Virus record (IMG/VR): IMGVR_UViG_2778261382_000003
Source: a virus
Taxonomy: Duplodnaviria; Heunggongvirae; Uroviricota; Caudoviricetes
DNA length: 18,906 nucleotides
Reading direction: 5' to 3' (one strand)
Positions within the stretch are counted from its first letter, which is position 1. Each line of letters starts with the position of its first letter. Under the pieces are notes generated by a model. That model searched no databases. It worked only from the letters and a program-made list of their open reading frames with translations, and was not told where the DNA came from. Positions 292 to 13,621 of the stretch are shown in pieces. A program made the translations under genes and the position numbers.

Positions 292-2249
292 ACGACCTCT
301 TTTAATTGCCTGTCATTTAATTCTTTATGCCATATGCGGAAATTGCGAATATGGCCAAACAGATGTCGTTCTCCAGTGTTCGTCTGCCCTCCAAATCGGA
401 TATTTTTATCAGCGGTCACGCCATTATATTCACAATAAACTTTATTAACCGCTTTACCATTTGTCACCACATGAAAGTGACCATCAGCTTTTGCAATACA
501 TCCAAATGTGGTTTTCTCTGCAAATACATCTGTCGCTGCGCTATTAACATACGAGCCTGAAGGGTTTGACAGACTCATATATAACTTACCACTACCTCTG
601 TTGATTGCTGCAATTGCTGATTGCCCGGTATTGGCTGCTGCTATATCCCACACGCGGGGTGCGGCGTTTGGTGCAATATCCCAGTTTTTATGAATCTCAA
701 GTAAAAAAGTAAATGGTAACTTATAAAGATTATTTCTGGTGGGGATACTAACCAAATCACTGGCTCTTGTCGTTGCGCTGCCTCCTGAAATAATAAATGA
801 TGATACACACGGCCCATTCTCTACTTGTGGGGTGGCAAGATAAATATAGTCACCAGATACTGTTGCCCCACCCTGCTCAGGAGAATACTGTATCTGAGAG
901 CCTATTTTTAACTCACCATCAATTGCCTGAATCGTTGCCTCTGCAAAAATCCAGCCTGTGGTCTTATCCTTCCTGACTCGTGCCGTAATTCTGCCGGCAG
1001 CCCCACCTGTCATATTAATTTCAAGCGTTTGCGTATCAATGTACGCATCGCCAAGAAAAGTTGTTGCACTACCATCATACTTATCAAACCGTATACGTAA
1101 CCTTACCTGTCGTTCTGTTTTAAAACGGCATGAGGTTGTCACGTACTTGTTATCGCCTGAGACATCAACTGACTTTGTTGCAGCAATTGATGCCATATTA
1201 ATAGCCGAAGTTTGCCCAACCAGAGAATCGTTGCAGACAAACTTTCCATAAGTAAAACCAAAACTATCTGTCCCGGTTTCGGGCACATCCATGTTTGATG
1301 ACTTCCCCCAGCTGGCTGGACTTTCCGAATTGAGCATGTAGTTCGTTCTTTGTCCCTCAATAAGCAGGCCATCACACTCAAATCGCGGCTCATTAATTTC
1401 CGCCGTTTTCAGTTCGCCAGATTTGTTGATATATGTTGCCGTTGATGCGCGACTGAAATTAACCTGTTTATCACTGGCGACCTGAACCACATCGTCACCA
1501 ATAGCTATTTTTTTATAGCCCGGAGAAAAACCCGCAATCATATCCAGTGAATCGTTAAACGGTATCCACACATCAGGCAGCGGCGGCACTATATTCGCAT
1601 AGGGCTCTGCAGTCACTTCCGCTGCGACTTCTGCGCGGTCTGCCGCCTTTTCAGCCCGTGTCGCTGCCGACAGAGCCTCATCCTTTTTCTGCCCGGCCTT
1701 TGTTGCGTCTGCTGCGGCCTCCCGCGCTTTTGTGGTGGCGACTCCGGCATTTTCAGCGGCTGACTCTGCATTACGGCGGGAAGCCTCTTCACTGTCTGCG
1801 GAGGCTTCTTCTGACGCACGGGCATTTGTCTCTGAACGTTCTGCCGCTGTTGCTGCGTTTTGTGCGGCTGTTTTTGAAGAAGCTGCCGCTTTCGCGCTGT
1901 TACCTGCATTCGTCTCTGATGTTTTCGCCGCATTCCTGGACGATGCCGCTGCTGTTTCTGATTTCTTTGCTGCCGCTGCGCTCTGAGAGGCGGCTTCAGC
2001 GTTGCGTGCCACCTCTTCCACCATCTTTTCAAAACGATACAGTGCCTCCGGACGAACATCATCTTCTGTTGCAGCGCCCAGAAAATCATTCAGCGTCCCC
2101 GGCTTAGAATCCTCATACACGGTGATGGTCCCGGCATGTGAAGGCGGAAAACCTTCAACCAGCAGGATAACGCTGTACTGGCCATACTCGACATCCATGC
2201 TGTAACGTCCGGCTTCATCCGGATTTTCTGAGGCCACCGTGTTCACCAC
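288..2249 (-). CDS. stf: Side tail fibre protein (lambda Stf-like N-terminus, Ala/Ser/Thr-rich repetitive shaft, divergent C-terminal receptor-binding domain)
   Basis: N-terminal region (VNTVASENPDEAGRYSMDVEYGQYSVILLVEGFPPSHAGTITVYEDS) matches the lambda side tail fibre N-terminus from memory. Low-complexity shaft follows. C-terminus ends ...GERHLFGHIRNFRIWHKELNDRQLKE, resembling the end of LamG/concanavalin-like jelly-roll domains. The annotated start is GTG; the frame stays open upstream to about 2330 (..KPIQNCTIQLKAKRNSTTVV) without an ATG, so the true N-terminus is uncertain or truncated. Confidence 0.85.
   Translation of the reverse strand: MVNTVASENPDEAGRYSMDVEYGQYSVILLVEGFPPSHAGTITVYEDSKPGTLNDFLGAATEDDVRPEALYRFEKMVEEVARNAEAASQSAAAAKKSETAAASSRNAAKTSETNAGNSAKAAASSKTAAQNAATAAERSETNARASEEASADSEEASRRNAESAAENAGVATTKAREAAADATKAGQKKDEALSAATRAEKAADRAEVAAEVTAEPYANIVPPLPDVWIPFNDSLDMIAGFSPGYKKIAIGDDVVQVASDKQVNFSRASTATYINKSGELKTAEINEPRFECDGLLIEGQRTNYMLNSESPASWGKSSNMDVPETGTDSFGFTYGKFVCNDSLVGQTSAINMASIAATKSVDVSGDNKYVTTSCRFKTERQVRLRIRFDKYDGSATTFLGDAYIDTQTLEINMTGGAAGRITARVRKDKTTGWIFAEATIQAIDGELKIGSQIQYSPEQGGATVSGDYIYLATPQVENGPCVSSFIISGGSATTRASDLVSIPTRNNLYKLPFTFLLEIHKNWDIAPNAAPRVWDIAAANTGQSAIAAINRGSGKLYMSLSNPSGSYVNSAATDVFAEKTTFGCIAKADGHFHVVTNGKAVNKVYCEYNGVTADKNIRFGGQTNTGERHLFGHIRNFRIWHKELNDRQLKEVV
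1610..2000. repeat. Degenerate Ala/Ser/Thr/Glu-rich tandem codon repeats inside the tail fibre gene
   Basis: Translation is low-complexity (AAASSRNAAKTSETNAGNSAKAAASSKTAAQNAATAAERSETNARASEEAS...). The repetitive GC-rich DNA keeps several antisense and alternate-frame ORFs open in the six-frame track. Confidence 0.55.
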
Positions 2250-2528
2250 AACCGTGGTGCTGTTACGTTTTGCTTTGAGCTGAATGGTGCAGTTCTGTAT
2301 CGGTTTACGGCGAAGAAGAACGGAAACGCCTTAAACCGGAAAATTTTCATAAATAGCGAAAACCCGCGAGGTCGCCGCCCCGTAACCTGTTGGATCGACG
2401 GAAAGGACCCGAAAACGAGAATAATTATCACTTACAGCAAGAATCGAATCTGATCTATTATGGTGCTTGCTATTATGTGCCGGCACAAGTGCGTCGTTTA
2501 CCGTCATTTCACACAGAGGCATCATCAA

Positions 2529-2780
2529 ATGAAAATCAGAAATATTCTCGCTATCTCCCTTGCGACATCATCCTTCAGTTGCCTGGCATTTAAATCCTCG
2601 CCCAATGTGCTACCAGGACCAACGAATCAACTAACTGCGGTAGAAAGTAAAATTATCGGACATTTTTATGCCCCACACAGTACATTACCCGGAACAACCA
2701 TCACAGGGACATGTGACGCCTCCCCCGTCCCGGGATGCACCTGCCCGTTTTGTACTATGCTGCGTAGCCAAAACCGATAA
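2529..2780 (+). CDS. Hypothetical small secreted Cys-rich protein (83 aa)
   Basis: Internal ATG of track ORF 2460-2780; N-terminus MKIRNILAISLATSSFSCLA looks like a signal peptide. Lies in the junction region between bor and the tail fibre. No recognisable homology; weak call. Confidence 0.3.
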   Translation: MKIRNILAISLATSSFSCLAFKSSPNVLPGPTNQLTAVESKIIGHFYAPHSTLPGTTITGTCDASPVPGCTCPFCTMLRSQNR

Positions 2781-2841
2781 CATCCGCATTTACCTGGTAT
2801 TCCATGATGAGTTCACGCAGCGACTGATAGAGGAAGGAAAG

Positions 2842-3021
2842 ATGGTTAGTAAAAGCAAGGCGCATTGCCGCCGCATGCTGCAGGCATTGCAACAGACGAG
2901 AGCAGGTATTTTTGACCAGTTGGAAAACTGCCAGCATACTTTGCCCGAGTATATCGCCATCTCATCGGAAACCAGTGCAACTCTTATTCATCGGGTTCCA
3001 CCAGAGAAAAAGAAGAAATGA
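2842..3021 (+). CDS. Hypothetical small protein (59 aa)
   Basis: ATG at 2842 preceded by a strong Shine-Dalgarno (gaggaaggaaag ATG). An inverted repeat at about 3028-3052 follows the stop. Function unknown. Confidence 0.35.
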   Translation: MVSKSKAHCRRMLQALQQTRAGIFDQLENCQHTLPEYIAISSETSATLIHRVPPEKKKK

Positions 3022-3143
3022 ACAGTGAGGCGTTGTGTGGCATACAACGCCTTCTTCCATCATTCCTCGTCAGCCATGACAAAAATATAACCGCTGGCTC
3101 TTTCATTTTTCTCCTGCTTCCAGCCCCTCTCTATCTGGAAGCA

Positions 3144-3470
3144 TCAAGGACGTGACGGCGTAAAGATAAATTGTCTCTTCACTCCCTGACAGGGGCGATT
3201 CTTTTCAAATCGCCATTTCGCCATGGCCTTCACCACTTCATCACGAAACAAATTATGAGGCTCTGAGCGGAGAAAAACGATCCGTGTCACAGTCCCATCA
3301 GCACCAATATCGAACTTAACCTCAACCAGCCCCTTGATATAATTTGCTGCAGCATATTCCGGATATCGTGGATACACCGTCACTAATTGCCGGGGCTCAT
3401 CAGCTTTTTGCTGCGAGCATCCCACTGCCAGGACAGATAACAGAAAAAGTAGTAAAAGGCGTCTTTTCAT
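3144..3470 (-). CDS. Prophage lipoprotein with TonB C-terminal-like domain
   Basis: Start taken at the internal ATG (3468-3470) with SD agga 7 nt upstream. N-terminus MKRRLLLLFLLSVLAVGCSQQ is a signal peptide with lipobox (LAVGC). Remainder (VYPRYPEYAAANYIKGLVEVKFDIGADGTVTRIVFLRSEP..FRDEVVKAMAKWRFE) matches the TonB C-terminal domain pattern from memory. Confidence 0.6.
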   Translation of the reverse strand: MKRRLLLLFLLSVLAVGCSQQKADEPRQLVTVYPRYPEYAAANYIKGLVEVKFDIGADGTVTRIVFLRSEPHNLFRDEVVKAMAKWRFEKNRPCQGVKRQFIFTPSRP

Positions 3471-3950
3471 TTTTATTCCTACGGGTCTTATTCTGACAAT
3501 ATATCCTGTGTTCCAGACTGCCACATCACCACATCCTGTGCCATTATCTGACTCACATTACATACATCGCATCGGGATACAGTAGTAGCACTTTCTGTAA
3601 TACAGCTTCCTGTTTCTTCCACCATCGCACCGGGATAAACCCGCGAATCATTAACGCGGTAAAAACCCGGTGTGCATCGTTTTTAATTATTCCCGCACAC
3701 TCACGCAGAAGGAATTCCCCGTCGGGCTACGGTCATGGTTAATGCGGGAATACGGCGACGATACAGCGCAGCTAAAAGGGTAATGGACGGATAGACCGGT
3801 TTATTTCATTCCACAGGATTCTGAGTGTCCCCAACTTCCTCCAATAGTCTGAGCCCACCTGTGTAGTTTTAATTTTCATCAATCCATTTAACTATCGTTT
3901 AATTGTTGTCACATAGGATTCTGCCGTTTTTAACAATGCAGGATAATAAG

Positions 3951-6761: not shown

Positions 6762-7844
6762 ATGAAAAAATTAACAGTGGCAATTTCTGCTGTAGCTGCA
6801 TCAGTACTGATGGCGATGTCTGCTCAGGCAGCTGAAATTTATAATAAAGACAGTAACAAGCTGGATCTATACGGGAAAGTTAATGCCAAGCACTACTTCT
6901 CCTCTAATGATGCAGATGATGGTGATACTACTTATGCCCGTCTTGGCTTCAAAGGTGAAACCCAAATCAACGATCAACTGACTGGTTTCGGTCAGTGGGA
7001 ATATGAATTCAAAGGCAACCGTGCTGAATCTCAAGGTTCTTCCAAAGACAAAACCCGTCTTGCATTTGCAGGCCTGAAATTTGGTGATTACGGCTCAATC
7101 GATTACGGCCGTAACTACGGTGTAGCATACGACATCGGTGCGTGGACTGACGTCCTGCCAGAATTCGGTGGTGATACCTGGACCCAAACAGATGTGTTCA
7201 TGACTGGTCGCACTACTGGTGTTGCAACTTATCGTAACAACGACTTCTTTGGTCTGGTCGATGGCCTGAACTTTGCTGCTCAGTATCAGGGTAAAAATGA
7301 CCGCACTGACGTAACTGAAGCCAATGGTGATGGTTTCGGTTTCTCCACTACTTATGAGTATGAAGGATTCGGCGTGGGTGCAACCTATGCTAAATCAGAT
7401 CGCACTGACGGTCAGGTCGCCTATGGTAAGAGCAAATTCAATGCCTCCGGCAAAAATGCGGAAGTATGGGCTGCAGGCCTGAAATATGATGCGAACAATA
7501 TCTATCTGGCTACCACATATTCTGAAACTCAGAATATGACCGTTTTTGGTAATAACCATATTGCAAACAAAGCACAAAACTTTGAAGCAGTAGCACAATA
7601 TCAGTTTGACTTCGGTCTGCGACCATCTGTTGCTTACCTTCAGTCAAAAGGTAAAGACCTTGGTGTTCATGGTGACCGAGACTTAGTCAAGTATGTCGAT
7701 GTCGGTGCTACTTACTACTTTAATAAAAACATGTCCACTTTTGTTGATTACAAAATCAACTTAATTGACGATAGTAAGTTTACCAAAACAGCTGGTATTG
7801 ATACCGACGACATCGTCGCTGTAGGTCTGGTTTATCAGTTCTAA
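6762..7844 (+). CDS. nmpC: OmpC/OmpF-family general porin (phage Lc / NmpC-type), lysogenic-conversion moron
   Basis: 360 aa with signal peptide [23 protein letters not shown], mature start [18 protein letters not shown]-terminal ..VAVGLVYQF (terminal Phe), classic enterobacterial 16-strand porin features. Sits between Q and the holin on the opposite strand, as in DLP12 and PA-2. A long AT-rich leader lies upstream (6340-6760). Confidence 0.95.
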
Positions 7845-9347: not shown

Positions 9348-9802
9348 TACGCCTCCTGCTTGTCACGGAGCAGCTGGAACTCGCAGCTCTGCGGAATAGT
9401 CAGGTGGCAGCCAATATTCACCGCCCAGGCTTCAACCTTACACAGGAAGACATACATCTCTCCGGTATCAAGATCGGAGGTATGGCGTAACGACTGGATA
9501 GTGGTGATATCACCGGTTACGACATCAACCAGGTCTTTGGTTTCATAACCGAGATATGTGTGTTTGAGAGCATCTTTTACCCAAGCTGGAGTGGCGAACG
9601 TTTTACCCCTGTTGATGAGGTATTCACTGATTTCGCTGTACCACATGTGGCTGAGTGCATTCTGGGAAAGACTGCGTTTCTCACGCCACGGTTTAAGCAC
9701 CATGCGAAAGCATTTGCCCTCCTCCAGATAAGGCTGGATCTGCTGACCGATAGCAGTGAAGTTACCACGATGCAATTTGATGCCGTCTTGTGGGAGGTTC
9801 AC
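9347..9802 (-). CDS. ybcN: YbcN-like nin-region protein (DUF1367)
   Basis: 151 aa. GTG start at 9800-9802 with SD ggagg 7 nt upstream. First gene of a tightly overlapping ybcN-ninE-ybcO-rusA block, the gene order of DLP12-type nin regions. Confidence 0.8.
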
Positions 9803-9829
9803 GCTTCACCTCCGCAGAGGTCAAACGCT

Positions 9830-9951
9830 GGATGCAAAAAATCGCAGGTGCATCTCTGCATCTGTGAAGGGAGAAGAGAGTTTGGATTGTATGTGCGCAT
9901 AAACGTCCCCGTTTAGCGCAGAAGTCACCGGAGTTGTTCAAGCTCCAATGG
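9830..9951. repeat. Direct repeat copy A (~120 bp), immediately upstream of ybcN
   Basis: 9830-9934 aligns to 11764-11868 with 7 mismatches in 105 bp; weaker similarity continues to 9951/11885. Contains an imperfect hairpin (gcgcataaacg tccc cgtttagcgc, plus-strand orientation) and an A/T run. On the minus strand it encodes a 35-aa ORF from GTG at 9926-9928. Confidence 0.85.
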
Positions 9952-9996
9952 CATGATTATGGCTGGTTGATTATTGGAAATCAAATGTGCTGAAAA

Positions 9997-10506
9997 TTAG
10001 TCTGCCAAGTCTTCCTCAGTCGCAACTGGGTAATTCCAAATATCAAAAAAAGCTATAGCCTCCTGCCATTTGCTCCATAAGTTATCAAGTACTTGTGTAG
10101 GTTCCGTACTTTTAAAAACAGAATCAGCCGCATCACCGTTATGAACTTCCTCGTACAGTTCCATTATTAGCAGATTAACAAAGTACTGTTTCAACATTAA
10201 TGCCTGATTACCTTCTTTCTGCTGGCTATCCTGCTTGATGATCTCCATCGCCCGTACTAGGCACCTGATGATATCCGCTGCATCATTAACGCTCCATTCA
10301 GATCCGCGCTTATCTTTAGCTGATGAATTGGCTCTCTCAGCGCAAGCCTTTAAAGACTCATAAAGGTAAACTCTATTATGTAGCTGCAGCGCTTTTTTTG
10401 ACGTGTACCAACTTGCAAGCGCCGACCCCGCTGCGGCTAATGTGCCAAACGCAGAAATGCCTGCTGCTATTGCACTTAAGTCGGCACTGTCAAAGTTCCA
10501 CATCAT
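9997..10506 (-). CDS. Hypothetical membrane-anchored protein (169 aa, one N-terminal TM helix)
   Basis: ATG ATG start at 10501-10506 with SD (aaggtg). N-terminus SADLSAIAAGISAFGTLAAAGSALASWY is hydrophobic. Own AT-rich promoter region upstream (10507-10680). No family recognised. Confidence 0.6.
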   Translation of the reverse strand: MMWNFDSADLSAIAAGISAFGTLAAAGSALASWYTSKKALQLHNRVYLYESLKACAERANSSAKDKRGSEWSVNDAADIIRCLVRAMEIIKQDSQQKEGNQALMLKQYFVNLLIMELYEEVHNGDAADSVFKSTEPTQVLDNLWSKWQEAIAFFDIWNYPVATEEDLAD

Positions 10507-10680
10507 CGTTACACCTTATATAAACACCCCTCAGTAATATCCAATAAGGTATGTGAACAATCAATATAATTTATATCCGTATCGGCACATAGCGATTTTA
10601 ATGCTACTGATAATGGTATCTTTTAGATTATATCGTCCAGTTCCAGTACCCGTATTTTATGAAATGGACTCGCACATTAC

Positions 10681-10722
10681 CAAAAAAAATGCCAGCACTT
10701 CCGTCATCGCAGAATGCTGGCA
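10681..10722 (-). terminator. Putative rho-independent terminator (minus strand) after the Bro-N gene
   Basis: Stem gccagca / tgctggc (10691-10697 and 10715-10721). On the minus strand it is followed by eight T (plus-strand A-run 10682-10689). Confidence 0.5.
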
Positions 10723-10741
10723 GTATTTCTAACTAGTGACT

Positions 10742-11350
10742 TTATTGCAACAGATTCTGACGGAAATATGGTAACACACGACTCCACTTATCATCCTGCC
10801 ACGGTTGGAATTTTACATGCGCCGTTTCTCTGGCAAGGATTTCTCGCGCCCTGTTGAGTATCCGAGGATATTCTTGTTCGATTGAAGTGAATCTACCTGC
10901 TTCGCGATGCTCTGCGACCTGAAGAAGGGGCGTAACGTTCTGGCAGGCGGTTAACATCGTATCACTTGCTCGCCATAACCAGGCGAGTGTGCAAAGTTCG
11001 TTATCAGTGAATTGTTTTGTGATTGGGGATTGTTGAACTTCTCGATCGAGAATATCCAGAACCCAGCGGCGGAATTCTTTGGCCACAGGAGTACGAGCAA
11101 ACATGGCGATCAAATGGGCTCCGCGAAGGCTAAATACTCGAGACTCCTGCATTCCACGAGGGGTGGTCACTTTGACCACCCTTGTCATCATATCTGTGAA
11201 TTCATCTGAGTGCCGAGAGTAAATGCGCTGAACTGCTTTATCGTCCGCATATTCCAGTGCTAAACCAACTTCAGTGGCAGTAAGCCAAATTCTGTTATTG
11301 TGGCAAATCGGGGTAAACGTCGTTTTGTGGAATGCTAATTGAGTAGTCAT
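10742..11350 (-). CDS. Bro-N domain protein (prophage antirepressor-like), 202 aa
   Basis: N-terminal region FTPICHNNRIWLTATEVGLALEYAD...VFSLRGAHLIAMFARTPVAKEFRRWVLDILDREV matches the Bro-N / KilA-N-like pattern (..AkeFr.Wv...) from memory. Flanked by its own promoter region and terminator. Confidence 0.7.
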   Translation of the reverse strand: MTTQLAFHKTTFTPICHNNRIWLTATEVGLALEYADDKAVQRIYSRHSDEFTDMMTRVVKVTTPRGMQESRVFSLRGAHLIAMFARTPVAKEFRRWVLDILDREVQQSPITKQFTDNELCTLAWLWRASDTMLTACQNVTPLLQVAEHREAGRFTSIEQEYPRILNRAREILARETAHVKFQPWQDDKWSRVLPYFRQNLLQ

Positions 11351-11505
11351 AGTATCACCTCATCAGGTTAACCATCACCACCAACGACGCCAATCGACTG
11401 GTGGTGAACTGTGTAAGGTTGGCGTAACCGGCTACTCAAACCCGGCGCTTCCGAAGAAGCCCTCACACAGCCCACCATAATTTGGGCATAGCCGTGCTTA
11501 GCGCA

Positions 11506-11527
11506 CAAAAAAACCGCTTAACGCGGT
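11506..11527 (-). terminator. Putative small rho-independent terminator (minus strand)
   Basis: Minus strand: accgc-gttaa-gcggt followed by seven T (plus-strand a7 at 11507-11513). Lies about 90 bp downstream of the 82-aa ORF. Confidence 0.4.
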
Positions 11528-11613
11528 ATGCGTTGAGTAGTATCCCGGGACGCCAATCCCGTGTGCCGATTTTGCGGCAACGCACAGAATATAGCGCCGG
11601 ATAAATCATGTCG

Positions 11614-11862
11614 TCAACCCCAGTAAATGGACACCATGATGATCACAGCCATAGCTGCTACAACAGTTACAACTACCTCAGGCCAAAACATAACGATTTC
11701 CATATCACCTTTAGCCGCCAGACGAATAGAGACTCCCAATTCTGGCTGTCGAAGTAAAACACCGAATGTAAAAAATCGTAGGTGCATTTCTGCATCTGTG
11801 AATGGAGATGAGAGTTTGGATTGTGTGTGCGCATAAACGTCCCCGTTTAGCGCAGAAGTCAC
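11614..11862 (-). CDS. Hypothetical small protein (82 aa, C-terminal hydrophobic segment); N-terminal 31 codons lie inside repeat copy B
   Basis: GTG start at 11860-11862; C-terminus IVMFWPEVVVTVVAAMAVIIMVSIYWG is hydrophobic. Its first 31 codons are shared with a 35-aa ORF in repeat copy A, differing by 4 synonymous and 1 non-synonymous changes. Weak RBS; coding status uncertain. Confidence 0.3.
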   Translation of the reverse strand: MTSALNGDVYAHTQSKLSSPFTDAEMHLRFFTFGVLLRQPELGVSIRLAAKGDMEIVMFWPEVVVTVVAAMAVIIMVSIYWG

Positions 11863-11885
11863 CGGAGTTTTTTAGGCTCCGATGA
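11764..11885. repeat. Direct repeat copy B (~120 bp)
   Basis: See copy A; 93 percent identity over 105 bp, same orientation, 1934 bp offset. Confidence 0.85.
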
Positions 11886-11981
11886 CAATATTATGGCTTT
11901 TTTATTTCTAAATTCAAAACTTGAAAATATTAAGATTCGCTTTTAAATCAACCCTAAACAACTGAAGATAACATCTGATAG

Positions 11982-12941
11982 TCAGCTAATTGCAAAGATA
12001 TTAAAAATAACTTTAGGGAGTGCGAAAGATGAAATAAAAAGCACAACCATAAAAATGGCATGCTTAATAAATGATGAGCTTGTAAAAAAAGCTCCTCCCT
12101 TGCTAATTCCTGCCATAAAAACAAAGATAAAGCTAATTAAGCACGACCATATCACTAACAAAACTGAGATTGACATGCTTAAAGACATATCGCGAGAAAA
12201 TACGTTTACTGAAATAGAAATGAAAGTAAAGAAAGAAGCAAATAAAGCAATGACACCCAGCATTGAGTTCCTTGCTGTAATTACTTCCGATTCAAAGCTT
12301 TTAACTTTCTCATGTATATCTTTTTCAGCATTTGATAATGTTGCATCAAATTGCTCAATCTTTGCAGTTTGCTGAGATAATGAAGACATTACCTTACCTA
12401 TTTTTCTTTTAGTATCATTAATATTCTTTTTGCTCTTATTCAACTCTTGCGAAAAATTGGTTAGTTGATCATTGATATTTTTCCAGAGGATGTTATCAAT
12501 ATCACTTTTTGTATATTTTTTTACATTCTCTTTATTAAAAGAAATTGTAGATTCAGAATTATTATTAACAAAGTAATTAGATAAAATGGCATTAGAGACA
12601 GTATTATCCATCACCGGCACAGTTGCTTTTGAACTGTATTTTATAGCTTCATGCAACATTTCTTTTTCATTAACAAAAAGAGAGGTTTTTATTAATTTTT
12701 GTGGTGCCGCGTCTTTGATGGATATACTTTCCCGCTCTTTATTTGAAGCTGTTGCAGTTTTATTATCTATCTGCAAATTACTAATTTTTTGTACCCCTCC
12801 TGTATACGTAGATGTACTATTCGATACTTGTGAATTAGAATAAAGTGAATGATGCGCAGTTCTTTTTGCCATGTCATCGTTGACTATAGCATTATTTTTT
12901 GCAGTTCTTTTTATATCCTTTTTATTATCATCCTTATTCAT
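11982..12941 (-). CDS. Hypothetical protein, 319 aa: low-complexity Ser/Thr/Asn-rich N-terminus, predicted helical / coiled-coil middle, about three C-terminal transmembrane helices; candidate membrane effector of a defence / exclusion module
   Basis: ATG at 12939-12941 with good SD (gaggtgg), 14 nt after the stop of the upstream gene. C-terminal hydrophobic segments MLGVIALFASFFTFISISVNVF, ISVLLVIWSCLISFIFVFMAGI, AIFMVVLFISSFALPKVIFNIFAI. About 27-30 percent GC against about 50 percent in flanking phage genes. Confidence 0.7.
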   Translation of the reverse strand: MNKDDNKKDIKRTAKNNAIVNDDMAKRTAHHSLYSNSQVSNSTSTYTGGVQKISNLQIDNKTATASNKERESISIKDAAPQKLIKTSLFVNEKEMLHEAIKYSSKATVPVMDNTVSNAILSNYFVNNNSESTISFNKENVKKYTKSDIDNILWKNINDQLTNFSQELNKSKKNINDTKRKIGKVMSSLSQQTAKIEQFDATLSNAEKDIHEKVKSFESEVITARNSMLGVIALFASFFTFISISVNVFSRDMSLSMSISVLLVIWSCLISFIFVFMAGISKGGAFFTSSSFIKHAIFMVVLFISSFALPKVIFNIFAIS

Positions 12942-12955
12942 TCAGCCACCTCACA

Positions 12956-13621
12956 TTACTGAATTTCATTCACTTTACTTAAAAAGGCTTTTTTTGTTTT
13001 TTCTGCGGTATATTTATCTTTAAATATAAAACTCTCGATTGTATTCACATCGATCTGTTTCACTAGCATTGGTTGTTCTCTGACAATATCATATCCTGAC
13101 ATAATCGACAAATGACAATTAAATATGGACTGCTCAAACTCGAATTTTTTATTATACATTAAATTAATATCTTCAATTATTTCGCTATCATTCTGCATGT
13201 TGTTACTAAGATAGTTTTTAACAATCTCTTTGTTTGGGTTGTTGTTTAATTCCGCCTTAACGGCCACCAAGCCTATTCTGATAATATCCTTATTGAGTTC
13301 TTTATGGATATCAACCACACTATCGAAAACTTCTTGAAACAAATGTAAGTCTACCTCTTGCTCAGAATCCATACGTTCAAAAAACAAATCACATCTCTGC
13401 AGTGAGCATTGAACTCTAAATTTATTATCTATAGAAAACAATTGGAGACGAGGAATCTCTGGTGGGGTATCCATAGGTAAAACGCCCAACATCATATTGT
13501 TTGTTAATTCAATACCTGCCTTCTTTTTAAAAGTTTGCCTAATAAAATACGACATTCCATCGAAATCGACAGTCGTTGATGAATCGTAAAAAAATACCAT
13601 TTGTAACTGTATGATTTTCAT
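12956..13621 (-). CDS. Hypothetical soluble protein, 221 aa; first gene of the AT-rich two-gene operon (candidate sensor / partner)
   Basis: ATG at 13619-13621, 152 bp after the P stop with an AT-rich promoter-like region between. Very AT-rich codon usage. No recognised motif. Confidence 0.7.
   Translation of the reverse strand: MKIIQLQMVFFYDSSTTVDFDGMSYFIRQTFKKKAGIELTNNMMLGVLPMDTPPEIPRLQLFSIDNKFRVQCSLQRCDLFFERMDSEQEVDLHLFQEVFDSVVDIHKELNKDIIRIGLVAVKAELNNNPNKEIVKNYLSNNMQNDSEIIEDINLMYNKKFEFEQSIFNCHLSIMSGYDIVREQPMLVKQIDVNTIESFIFKDKYTAEKTKKAFLSKVNEIQ

Follow-up and report, generated by a model that had tools for sequence, protein, structure and literature searches.

The 18,906-nucleotide (nt) stretch of viral DNA analysed here (IMG/VR record IMGVR_UViG_2778261382_000003; hereafter the window) carries on its minus strand adjacent genes for a 202-amino-acid (aa) Bro-N-domain protein (10742-11350) and a 169-aa protein (9997-10506), which a preliminary description had grouped into one independently transcribed cassette. 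Our analysis indicates that this interval comprises two independent accessory modules rather than one cassette. Module 1 (~11617..10682) is likely to be an antirepressor-type unit gated by IsrK- and C4-like RNAs, and Module 2 (~10564..9997) would be a moron-like gene equipped with its own promoter. We consider this two-module explanation, taken as a whole, to be reasonably probable; it draws on sequence elements, homologies and gene contexts that were observed directly. The window is 100% identical to Escherichia coli chromosome sequence and represents a lambdoid prophage whose integration site adjoins icd. Both genes occupy a variable slot between the replication gene P and ninB. The overall finding is largely ordinary, in that it joins a familiar antirepressor-type gene to an uncharacterised moron-like gene. 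The antirepressor unit is of a known RNA-controlled kind, and its combination of effector and leader, together with its position, is new.

The Bro-N gene is the last gene of a unit of the P1-immI or Gifsy-1 isrK type, and the left boundary of this unit lies near 11617, not at 11350. A search with all Rfam families yielded three same-strand matches directly upstream of the gene, namely isrK (RF01394; 11507..11579; 58.7 bits, gathering score 50), C4 (RF01695; 11397..11482; 74.8 bits, gathering score 45, E-value 2.6e-13) and c4-a1b1 (RF03163). Just upstream of the isrK match lies the best sigma-70 match of the region (11588..11617, minus strand; 10/12), a PisrK-like promoter with -35 TTGACG at 11617..11612, an 18-nt spacer and -10 TATATT at 11593..11588. 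When folded, the IsrK-like small RNA (sRNA) forms two 5' hairpins with the loops CAAAAUC and (A)UUGGCG(U), followed by a third hairpin that a terminator scan identified as the RNA's own intrinsic terminator (ACCGCGTTAAGCGGT plus T7). The C4-like antisense or regulatory RNA, which is the equivalent of Gifsy-1 STnc1160, folds into a long closing stem that encloses two inner hairpins and leaves an ACGCCAA segment single-stranded (minimum free energy -42.9 kcal/mol). Reading of the sequence reveals that ACGCCAA is complementary to UUGGCGU at two places, in the loop of IsrK hairpin 2 and in a GAUUGGCG(U) block at 11395..11388. A second C4 box pair (CAAA/UUUG) spans only 4 nt.

A leader open reading frame (ORF) of 36 codons (MVGCVRASSEAPGLSSRLRQPYTVHHQSIGVVGGDG) extends through this region (11368..11478, minus strand). 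It begins at ATGGTGGG and ends with a TAA that stands 17 nt ahead of the Bro-N ATG and closely precedes a GAGGTGA Shine-Dalgarno sequence. At its other end the unit is closed, directly after the Bro-N stop, by a terminator (10682..10722, minus strand) consisting of the stem TGCCAGCA...TGCTGGCA and then T8. This structure had been noted in the preliminary description and is borne out by folding (-23.2 kcal/mol, z-score -2.3); a simple terminator scan missed it only because its loop is longer than 8 nt. The terminator block is ~94% conserved in all E. coli variants. Each of the two genes had also been credited with an AT-rich upstream region. This is correct for the 169-aa gene, whose upstream 174 nt have a GC content of 34.5%, but not for the Bro-N gene, since the 270 nt upstream of it have a GC content of 53% and are filled by the structured elements isrK, C4 and c4-a1b1.

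The experimentally characterised counterpart of this arrangement is found in the Salmonella prophage Gifsy-1, where PisrK, IsrK, orf45 (inside STnc1160) and anrP follow one another, the PisrK promoter drives anrP transcription, and translation of orf45 is required for translation of anrP; both the mechanism and the operon structure were shown by experiment (PMC4825925). More broadly, the IsrK-C4 system has been recognised in P1, P7, N15, P4 and lambdoid prophages (PMC3632133). The leader of the window was aligned with those of the Gifsy-1 isrK locus, the ant gene of a Shiga toxin (Stx) 1 phage and phage IdasGreatGrand. All four sequences align over the full ~270 nt of the leader. Invariant positions include the -10 block GCTATATTC, both hairpin loops, the ATGGTGGG start, the GGTTACGCCAACC segment, the CGATTGGCGTCG box and the UUGGCGU boxes, and the stem changes relative to Gifsy-1 and the Stx phages are compensatory. 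The three Rfam families matched in the window are matched at the Gifsy-1 and Stx loci as well. By blastn, the leader recurs at about 70% identity in 207 phage records, mostly of Stx-converting phages, in which it precedes ant between ninE and ninF.

The leader ORF is retained in this alignment as well. In Gifsy-1, the frame that opens at ATGGTGGG encodes exactly 45 aa, the published orf45, and overlaps the anrP start as ATGA; in all four loci the frame is kept through ...IGVxGGD. By analogy, the leader ORF of the window may be regarded as the counterpart of orf45, with a putative translational coupling to the Bro-N gene. Existing annotation gives only a 'P22AR C-terminal domain-containing protein' at this locus and leaves the RNA leader unannotated, as do the phage records that share the leader. 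A 57-aa ORF (phrog_4612; 11614-11787, minus strand), whose last 29 residues are clearly hydrophobic (MEIVMFWPEVVVTVVAAMAVIIMVSIYWG), lies next to the leader and has a stop codon that shares bases with the -35 of the PisrK-like promoter. This ORF was found in every fetched locus that has the leader and enough upstream sequence.

Several observations weigh against assigning the window to this system. The c4-a1b1 match, which overlaps isrK at 11594..11542, reaches 39.6 bits and thus falls below its gathering score of 46.7. Unconstrained duplex energies for C4 and its targets are not clearly better than those of shuffled sequences, although this test is uninformative. The second UUGGCGU falls within the leader ORF, at a distance of 36 nt from the Bro-N ATG, where it does not overlap the ribosome-binding site (RBS) as it does in P1, and the leader ORF does not overlap the start of the next gene as it does in Gifsy-1. 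Homology of the 202-aa protein to Gifsy-1 AnrP was considered and rejected, as only the first ~10 residues align and the N-terminal domains differ (ORF6N versus Bro-N).

The effector gene itself is intact. The preliminary description had allowed that the Bro-N gene might prove to be a truncated pseudogene, but the protein is full length with both of its domains complete, and the leader and gene together are present at 80% coverage or more in 134 E. coli genomes. Pfam recognises Bro-N at residues 17-100 (E-value 4.4e-10), as had been described, and P22_AR_C (PF10548; hereafter P22AR_C) at residues 110-180 (E-value 1.7e-17; 63.7 bits against a cut-off of 22.4). The protein also matches PHROG antirepressor (Ant) families. 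Its C-terminal domain aligns with residues 177-271 of P22 Ant (BLASTP E-value 7e-6), and no significant alignment between the two proteins was detected outside this domain in the N-terminal half. The architecture is very common, with more than 4000 clusters carrying both domains. An AlphaFold2 (AF2) model of the protein (predicted local distance difference test score, pLDDT, 68.6; C-terminal half poor) gave no match in the PDB at an E-value of 0.001 or below, and a sequence search of the PDB gave none for either the 202-aa or the 169-aa protein.

Gene context is more instructive. Three orthologues with 66-73% identity are found in prophages of Klebsiella, Citrobacter and Enterobacter, where they are placed among tail genes. 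Each sits directly 3' of a 53-57-aa ORF, which in the Enterobacter locus has an Arc fold by Pfam, and opposite each lies a divergent gene of the Arc/ribbon-helix-helix type. This is the mnt/arc/ant layout of P22 (loci L070, L072 and L073, about 2200-3700). Rfam searches of the Klebsiella, Citrobacter and Enterobacter loci returned no C4 and no isrK match. In two of the displayed loci (L071 and L073), a second antirepressor-like gene, of the ORF6N type, follows directly downstream. These contexts show the same effector under what appears to be either protein-based (Arc/Mnt) or RNA-based immI control. AnrP has an ORF6N domain, Stx-phage Ant combines ORF6N with P22AR_C, and the protein of the window combines Bro-N with P22AR_C. 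Different antirepressor-type genes are thus found behind one leader, and the leader is therefore a portable front end. The antirepressor-like character proposed in the preliminary description is upheld by the P22AR_C domain, the PHROG Ant families and the orthologues in the ant slot. The 202-aa protein is best read as a putative riboregulated antirepressor, for which the ant-slot position of its orthologues offers the strongest support.

Module 2 contains the 169-aa gene, whose start is probably the second ATG (10503), giving 168 aa, because the first ATG is ATA in some variants. The product matches no Pfam, NCBIfam or PADLOC family and only phrog_1779, a PHROG of unknown function. Thus, it falls in no named nin family, and the earlier view that neither gene is part of the core replication or nin set is retained. 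Its own family is small, with 15 clusters found among 5.8 billion proteins in one search and 35 representatives among 1.8 billion in another, and it is narrow, since a scan of species-representative genomes gave only three loci (Scandinavium, Enterobacter and Phytobacter). We conclude that the family is phage-borne, restricted to Enterobacteriaceae and without named relatives.

Full-length members are mostly about 153-182 aa in length, with one distant member of 288 aa. The members inspected share an Ala/Gly-rich hydrophobic N-terminal helix (~residues 10-32), a helical domain in which C55, N60, W71 and D75 are conserved in the alignment, and an invariant acidic C-terminal tail (...T-[ED]-ED-L-x-D). 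The N-terminal segment is the most hydrophobic one in 13 of 14 aligned members, the exception being P0002, whose N-terminal region is aberrant. The 13 members that keep it have Kyte-Doolittle (KD) values of 1.6-2.3 and Hessa values of -0.5 to +3.9, and in them the segment is flanked by acidic residues on its N-terminal side and by basic residues on its C-terminal side. These flank charges predict an Nout-Cin orientation that would leave the helical bundle in the cytoplasm. One distant member carries three clear transmembrane (TM) helices fused in front of the hydrophobic segment; among the distant relatives, fusions contribute only extra TM helices and no Pfam domains. The AF2 model is an all-helical bundle (pLDDT 71.5) in which residues 1-26 have low confidence.

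The 169-aa gene is preceded by a promoter-like element (10524..10564, minus strand) composed of -35 TTGATT (10564..10559), a 17-nt spacer and -10 GATATT (10541..10536). An inverted repeat flanks the -10; it is degenerate in the window (ATACC at 10552..10548 and GGTGT at 10528..10524), and relatives, in most of nine sequences, carry the perfect form AATACCCT...AGGGTATT. The pattern TTG(A/C)nn, exactly 17 nt and GATATT is present in nine distinct upstream sequences, for which the encoded proteins are 49-100% identical and the upstream genes differ. An alignment of upstream regions likewise indicates that ~65 nt before the start codon are conserved across contexts despite the differing neighbours. 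A self-contained promoter, possibly controlled by an operator, is therefore not demanded by these sequences but is plausible from them. The palindrome has no other copy in the window or in the fetched loci, and the idea of a regulon was dropped. The independent transcription proposed earlier is hence plausible for the 169-aa gene, given its conserved promoter-like element. The Bro-N gene, for its part, is not driven from an AT-rich region of its own but lies behind the IsrK/C4 leader.

Several points count against this account of Module 2. The N-terminal segment is a borderline TM helix in the copy of the window (maximum over 19 residues of 1.59 on the KD scale; Hessa additive value +2.7), which qualifies the single TM helix of the preliminary description. 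Fold matches of the AF2 model are generic and uninformative on function. The promoter-like element scores 8/12 against the consensus and hence was not listed by a consensus scan, and the motif is absent from four relatives (L012, L018, L020 and L021). On balance, we lean slightly towards a small membrane-anchored helical protein with its own promoter. Its likeliest class would be a prophage-expressed envelope function, such as phage exclusion or modulation of the host membrane. The more specific readings offered earlier, abortive infection and superinfection exclusion, found no backing: comparison by hhalign with P22 SieA or SieB gave probabilities below 1%, and the fold was uninformative. A defence or abortive-infection assignment was rejected, as PADLOC at an E-value of 0.1 returned no match for either protein of the interval or for two low-GC genes upstream.

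One alternative for Module 2 is that the 169-aa gene is an ordinary early-right gene, transcribed from pR with antitermination and used in the lytic cycle, and that the conserved upstream sequence is an mRNA element. In relatives the gene does have the early-right orientation, with a gap of 40-110 nt to the gene ahead of it and ninB or DUF1367 close behind it, and the inverted repeat could form an RNA hairpin. However, the -35 and -10 hexamers keep their exact 17-nt spacing in the nine variants, and the inverted repeat has its left arm upstream of the -10. The E. coli gene, moreover, follows a strong terminator, and it is kept at 95% identity or more in 178 of 180 carriers, including this defective prophage, which lacks pR. 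We therefore judge this alternative to be somewhat unlikely.

For Module 1, we infer the sign of the RNA control, an antirepressor function and the target of that function as follows; any function of the 169-aa protein is equally conjectural. The constitutive sigma-70 promoter would yield the IsrK-like sRNA, with most transcripts ending at the terminator of the sRNA itself. Transcripts that read through would carry the C4-like RNA, within which the 36-codon leader ORF is embedded, and behind it the Bro-N/P22AR_C gene. If the unit behaves like isrK-orf45-anrP of Gifsy-1, this long transcript would be translationally silent until pairing between the IsrK and C4 RNAs, UUGGCGU against ACGCCAA, opens the leader ORF. 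Ribosomes that finish the leader ORF could then load at the antirepressor start 17 nt downstream. In the P1/P7 version of the system, a processed C4 RNA represses ant instead. With its P22-Ant-like C-terminal domain, the protein would bind a phage repressor and inactivate it; as the prophage has lost its own immunity region, the target would be the repressor of a co-resident or incoming lambdoid phage. Transcription of the unit would end at the strong intrinsic terminator, beyond which the moron-like 169-aa gene would be transcribed from its own promoter to give a product anchored in the membrane with Nout-Cin orientation.

An alternative view concerns the action on a repressor. Bro-N (PF02498) is a DNA-binding-type domain, and the 202-aa protein might not be an antirepressor at all, but instead a DNA-binding regulator (such as a Roi- or AnrP-like activator of a phage gene nearby), a growth effector or an RNA-silenced toxin. 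No repressor gene is left in this prophage, and no repressor target is present in the window, a point that also bears against the mechanism proposed above. Gifsy-1 AnrP raises antQ expression and arrests growth when overproduced (PMC4825925), and knockout of Stx-phage Ant had no effect on superinfection immunity (PMC3064807). Against this, the C-terminal domain is common to P22 Ant, and the orthologues take the place of ant, with Arc- and Mnt-like genes as neighbours. The activation of antQ by AnrP has been explained as derepression, and AnrP induces Gifsy-1 (PMC4825925). Efficient induction of the Stx phage Phi24B is promoted by an Ant that shares the P22AR_C domain (PMC3064807). These findings make a function other than antirepression unlikely.

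A joint role for the two genes is harder to sustain. The preliminary description had suggested that co-occurrence be examined across prophages, and we find that the pairing is limited to a linkage block of E. coli. The 169-aa gene is present in 180 of 5426 complete E. coli genomes and the whole block in 111. Among the fetched loci, all close copies of the gene (at least 95% identity) adjoin a gene that contains P22AR_C. The upstream half of this neighbour varies. The allele of the window is accompanied by the leader, a 67%-identical allele (phage PhiR5_1) has no match to the leader, and a third variant is a 99-aa stub with P22AR_C only that lies behind emrE and a serine recombinase. One E. coli locus with a DLP12-like (K-12) context (L023, 163-3510) carries, in order, emrE, a 508-aa large serine recombinase, a 99-aa P22AR_C-only gene, the 169-aa gene, ylcH and ybcN. 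What is conserved as a unit is a ~94-100% identical DNA block that runs from the ant 3' end through terminator and spacer and takes in the 169-aa gene. More divergent members of the family, with 45-82% identity, are found in nine other gene contexts with unrelated upstream genes, where ninB or DUF1367 follows either directly or after one intervening gene, and none had a Bro-N/P22AR_C neighbour in the 14 loci outside E. coli that were compared. Conversely, Bro-N orthologues occur elsewhere, in P22-type immI regions, with no 169-aa gene. Because a single DNA block is conserved and the divergent homologues are unpaired, the pairing in E. coli reflects linkage by descent and not joint function.

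These data bear directly on the proposal that the two genes act together as one cassette, for example in abortive infection or exclusion, with the Bro-N protein as sensor or regulator and the membrane protein as effector. Their adjacency is near-universal in E. coli and survives a swap of the antirepressor N-terminal half and even its reduction to the 99-aa stub. Yet this adjacency is that of one block inherited by descent, each gene is found elsewhere in the company of others, a strong terminator and a separate promoter-like element stand between them, and PADLOC found no matches. We consider such a cassette very unlikely. Least probable of all is that the RNAs themselves are selected, as an IsrK/C4 decoy or defence against P4-like satellites or C4-controlled phages with the protein gene as cargo: this possibility was raised by Barquist et al. 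for lambdoid prophages with IsrK-C4-like genes (PMC3632133), and lysogens of Gifsy-1 transcribe IsrK and STnc1160 at high levels (PMC7067206), but in the window, IdasGreatGrand, the Stx phages and Gifsy-1 the leader always precedes an intact antirepressor-type ORF, to which the leader ORF would be coupled.

With the two-module explanation in place, recognition of the leader puts the antirepressor gene under a known small-RNA switch. One Ant-type effector behind two unrelated classical controls, the Arc/Mnt proteins of P22 and the C4/IsrK RNAs of P1, points to modular exchange in phage immunity regions. An RNA-gated antirepressor in a cryptic prophage could affect whether other prophages are induced, Stx phages with the same leader among them. 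The 169-aa family offers a small, self-contained candidate for functional screening, and nothing shows it to be special. A bolder combined claim would have the 169-aa protein found a new class of membrane-anchored prophage factor (acting in superinfection exclusion or in envelope or host interference, with an operator-flanked promoter and the acidic tail as an interaction motif) and would have the RNA-gated antirepressor trigger co-resident lambdoid prophages in trans. We regard this combination as doubtful.

The surrounding prophage has a minus-strand early-right gene order of O and P followed by ninB/ybcN, ninE, ybcO, rusA and quuD. It is defective, in that the immunity region is deleted and pR is absent. 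A ydaT pseudogene has been left directly next to unrelated plus-strand genes, and truncation has affected most tail genes, including those for the tail fibre. Only genes with their own promoters are likely to be expressed, because the prophage lacks pR and the immunity region. Conversion-type genes have been retained, namely an ompC-like porin gene (6762-7844, plus strand), iss/bor and a TonB-family gene.

As the preliminary description had noted, repeat copies bracket both genes; they form a 156-nt direct repeat (9817-9972 versus 11751-11906) with 87% identity. Copy 1 (9817..9972, minus strand) is the conserved linker that precedes ninB and contains a putative promoter, an inverted repeat and an intact ylcH/orf33 (33 aa; 9900..9799, minus strand), the stop of which overlaps the GTG start of ninB/ybcN. 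The record of phage 82 annotates the homologous stretch with a -35, a -10, a 'possible regulator-binding site' (the inverted repeat) and orf33 (= ylcH). Copy 2 (11751..11906, minus strand) marks the upstream edge of the inserted block, and its ylcH frame is shifted, which is seen as a 53-aa ORF at 11673-11834 (minus strand). Both copies include a promoter-like site, at 9984..9956 and at 11917..11890, together with a small inverted repeat. A survey of loci found copy 2 confined to those that carry the leader and the Bro-N allele of the window. The duplication is best explained by recombination at the linker upon acquisition of the block. Downstream of the 169-aa gene there is only a weak hairpin with T6 inside the repeat (9860..9843; -9.9 kcal/mol, z-score -0.9).

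Between P and repeat copy 2 lie two further adjacent genes, for proteins of 221 aa and 319 aa (11982-13621, minus strand), with a GC content of 30-32% compared with 45% for the window. Neither has a Pfam, NCBIfam or PADLOC family match, and both match only PHROGs of unknown function. The 319-aa protein appears to consist of a coiled coil followed by C-terminal TM helices. These genes are a candidate foreign moron or defence pair.

Morons are promoter-gene-terminator insertions that are expressed from prophages, and P22 SieA and SieB are membrane exclusion proteins. The 169-aa gene resembles morons in its conserved promoter-like element, in its location between conserved gene blocks and in the predicted membrane anchoring of its product. 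It differs from examples such as SieA and SieB in that it has no similarity to these proteins or to defence models and in that its downstream terminator is weak.

Among the closest known relatives of Module 1 is the isrK-orf45-anrP-isrJ region of Gifsy-1 in Salmonella (Hershko-Shalev et al. 2016, PMC4825925). Promoter, IsrK with terminator, C4-like RNA/STnc1160 and leader ORF follow in the same order in both, an antirepressor-like gene comes next, and the first codons (MTTQ) are common to the two genes. The effectors differ (Bro-N plus P22AR_C in the window, ORF6N in AnrP), as do the leader ORFs, which have 36 codons and end 17 nt before the gene in the window but have 45 codons and overlap the gene in Gifsy-1. 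Rfam detects no IsrJ after the gene of the window, and no adjacent Q-like target gene is known. Furthermore, the unit of the window lies between P and ninB, whereas that of Gifsy-1 lies between Q and the lysis genes. Rfam isrJ matches were obtained in other fetched loci (L005, 8567-8643; L006, 7784-7854; L020, 5873-5946; L065, 6371-6443). Those in L005 and L006 are directly 3' of the gene for the antiterminator Q, where the short leader transcript from pR' is located, and 'IsrJ' may simply be this leader RNA.

The immI regions of P1 and P7 (c4-icd-ant) share with the window a C4 RNA flanked by short repeated boxes, which in the window are putative targets, and a small ORF before the antirepressor gene, putatively coupled to it in the window, and their RNAs belong to the same Rfam clan (PMC3632133). 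In the window, however, the upstream element includes an intrinsic terminator and fits the isrK model better than a1b1, the RBS is clear of the downstream box, and the carrier is a lambdoid prophage. The P22 immI region (mnt / arc-ant, sar RNA) has the P22AR_C domain in common with the 202-aa protein, whose orthologues come after Arc-like and opposite Mnt-like genes. Unlike P22, the window has no arc, mnt or sar, and control would be exerted by IsrK/C4 RNAs rather than by repressor proteins. Finally, Ant of the Stx phages (Phi24B and the 933W group) matches the unit of the window in its IsrK/C4 leader, its P22AR_C domain and its setting in a lambdoid nin region, and is distinguished from it by an ORF6N N-terminus where the window has Bro-N and by a site between ninE and ninF where the window unit lies upstream of ninB.

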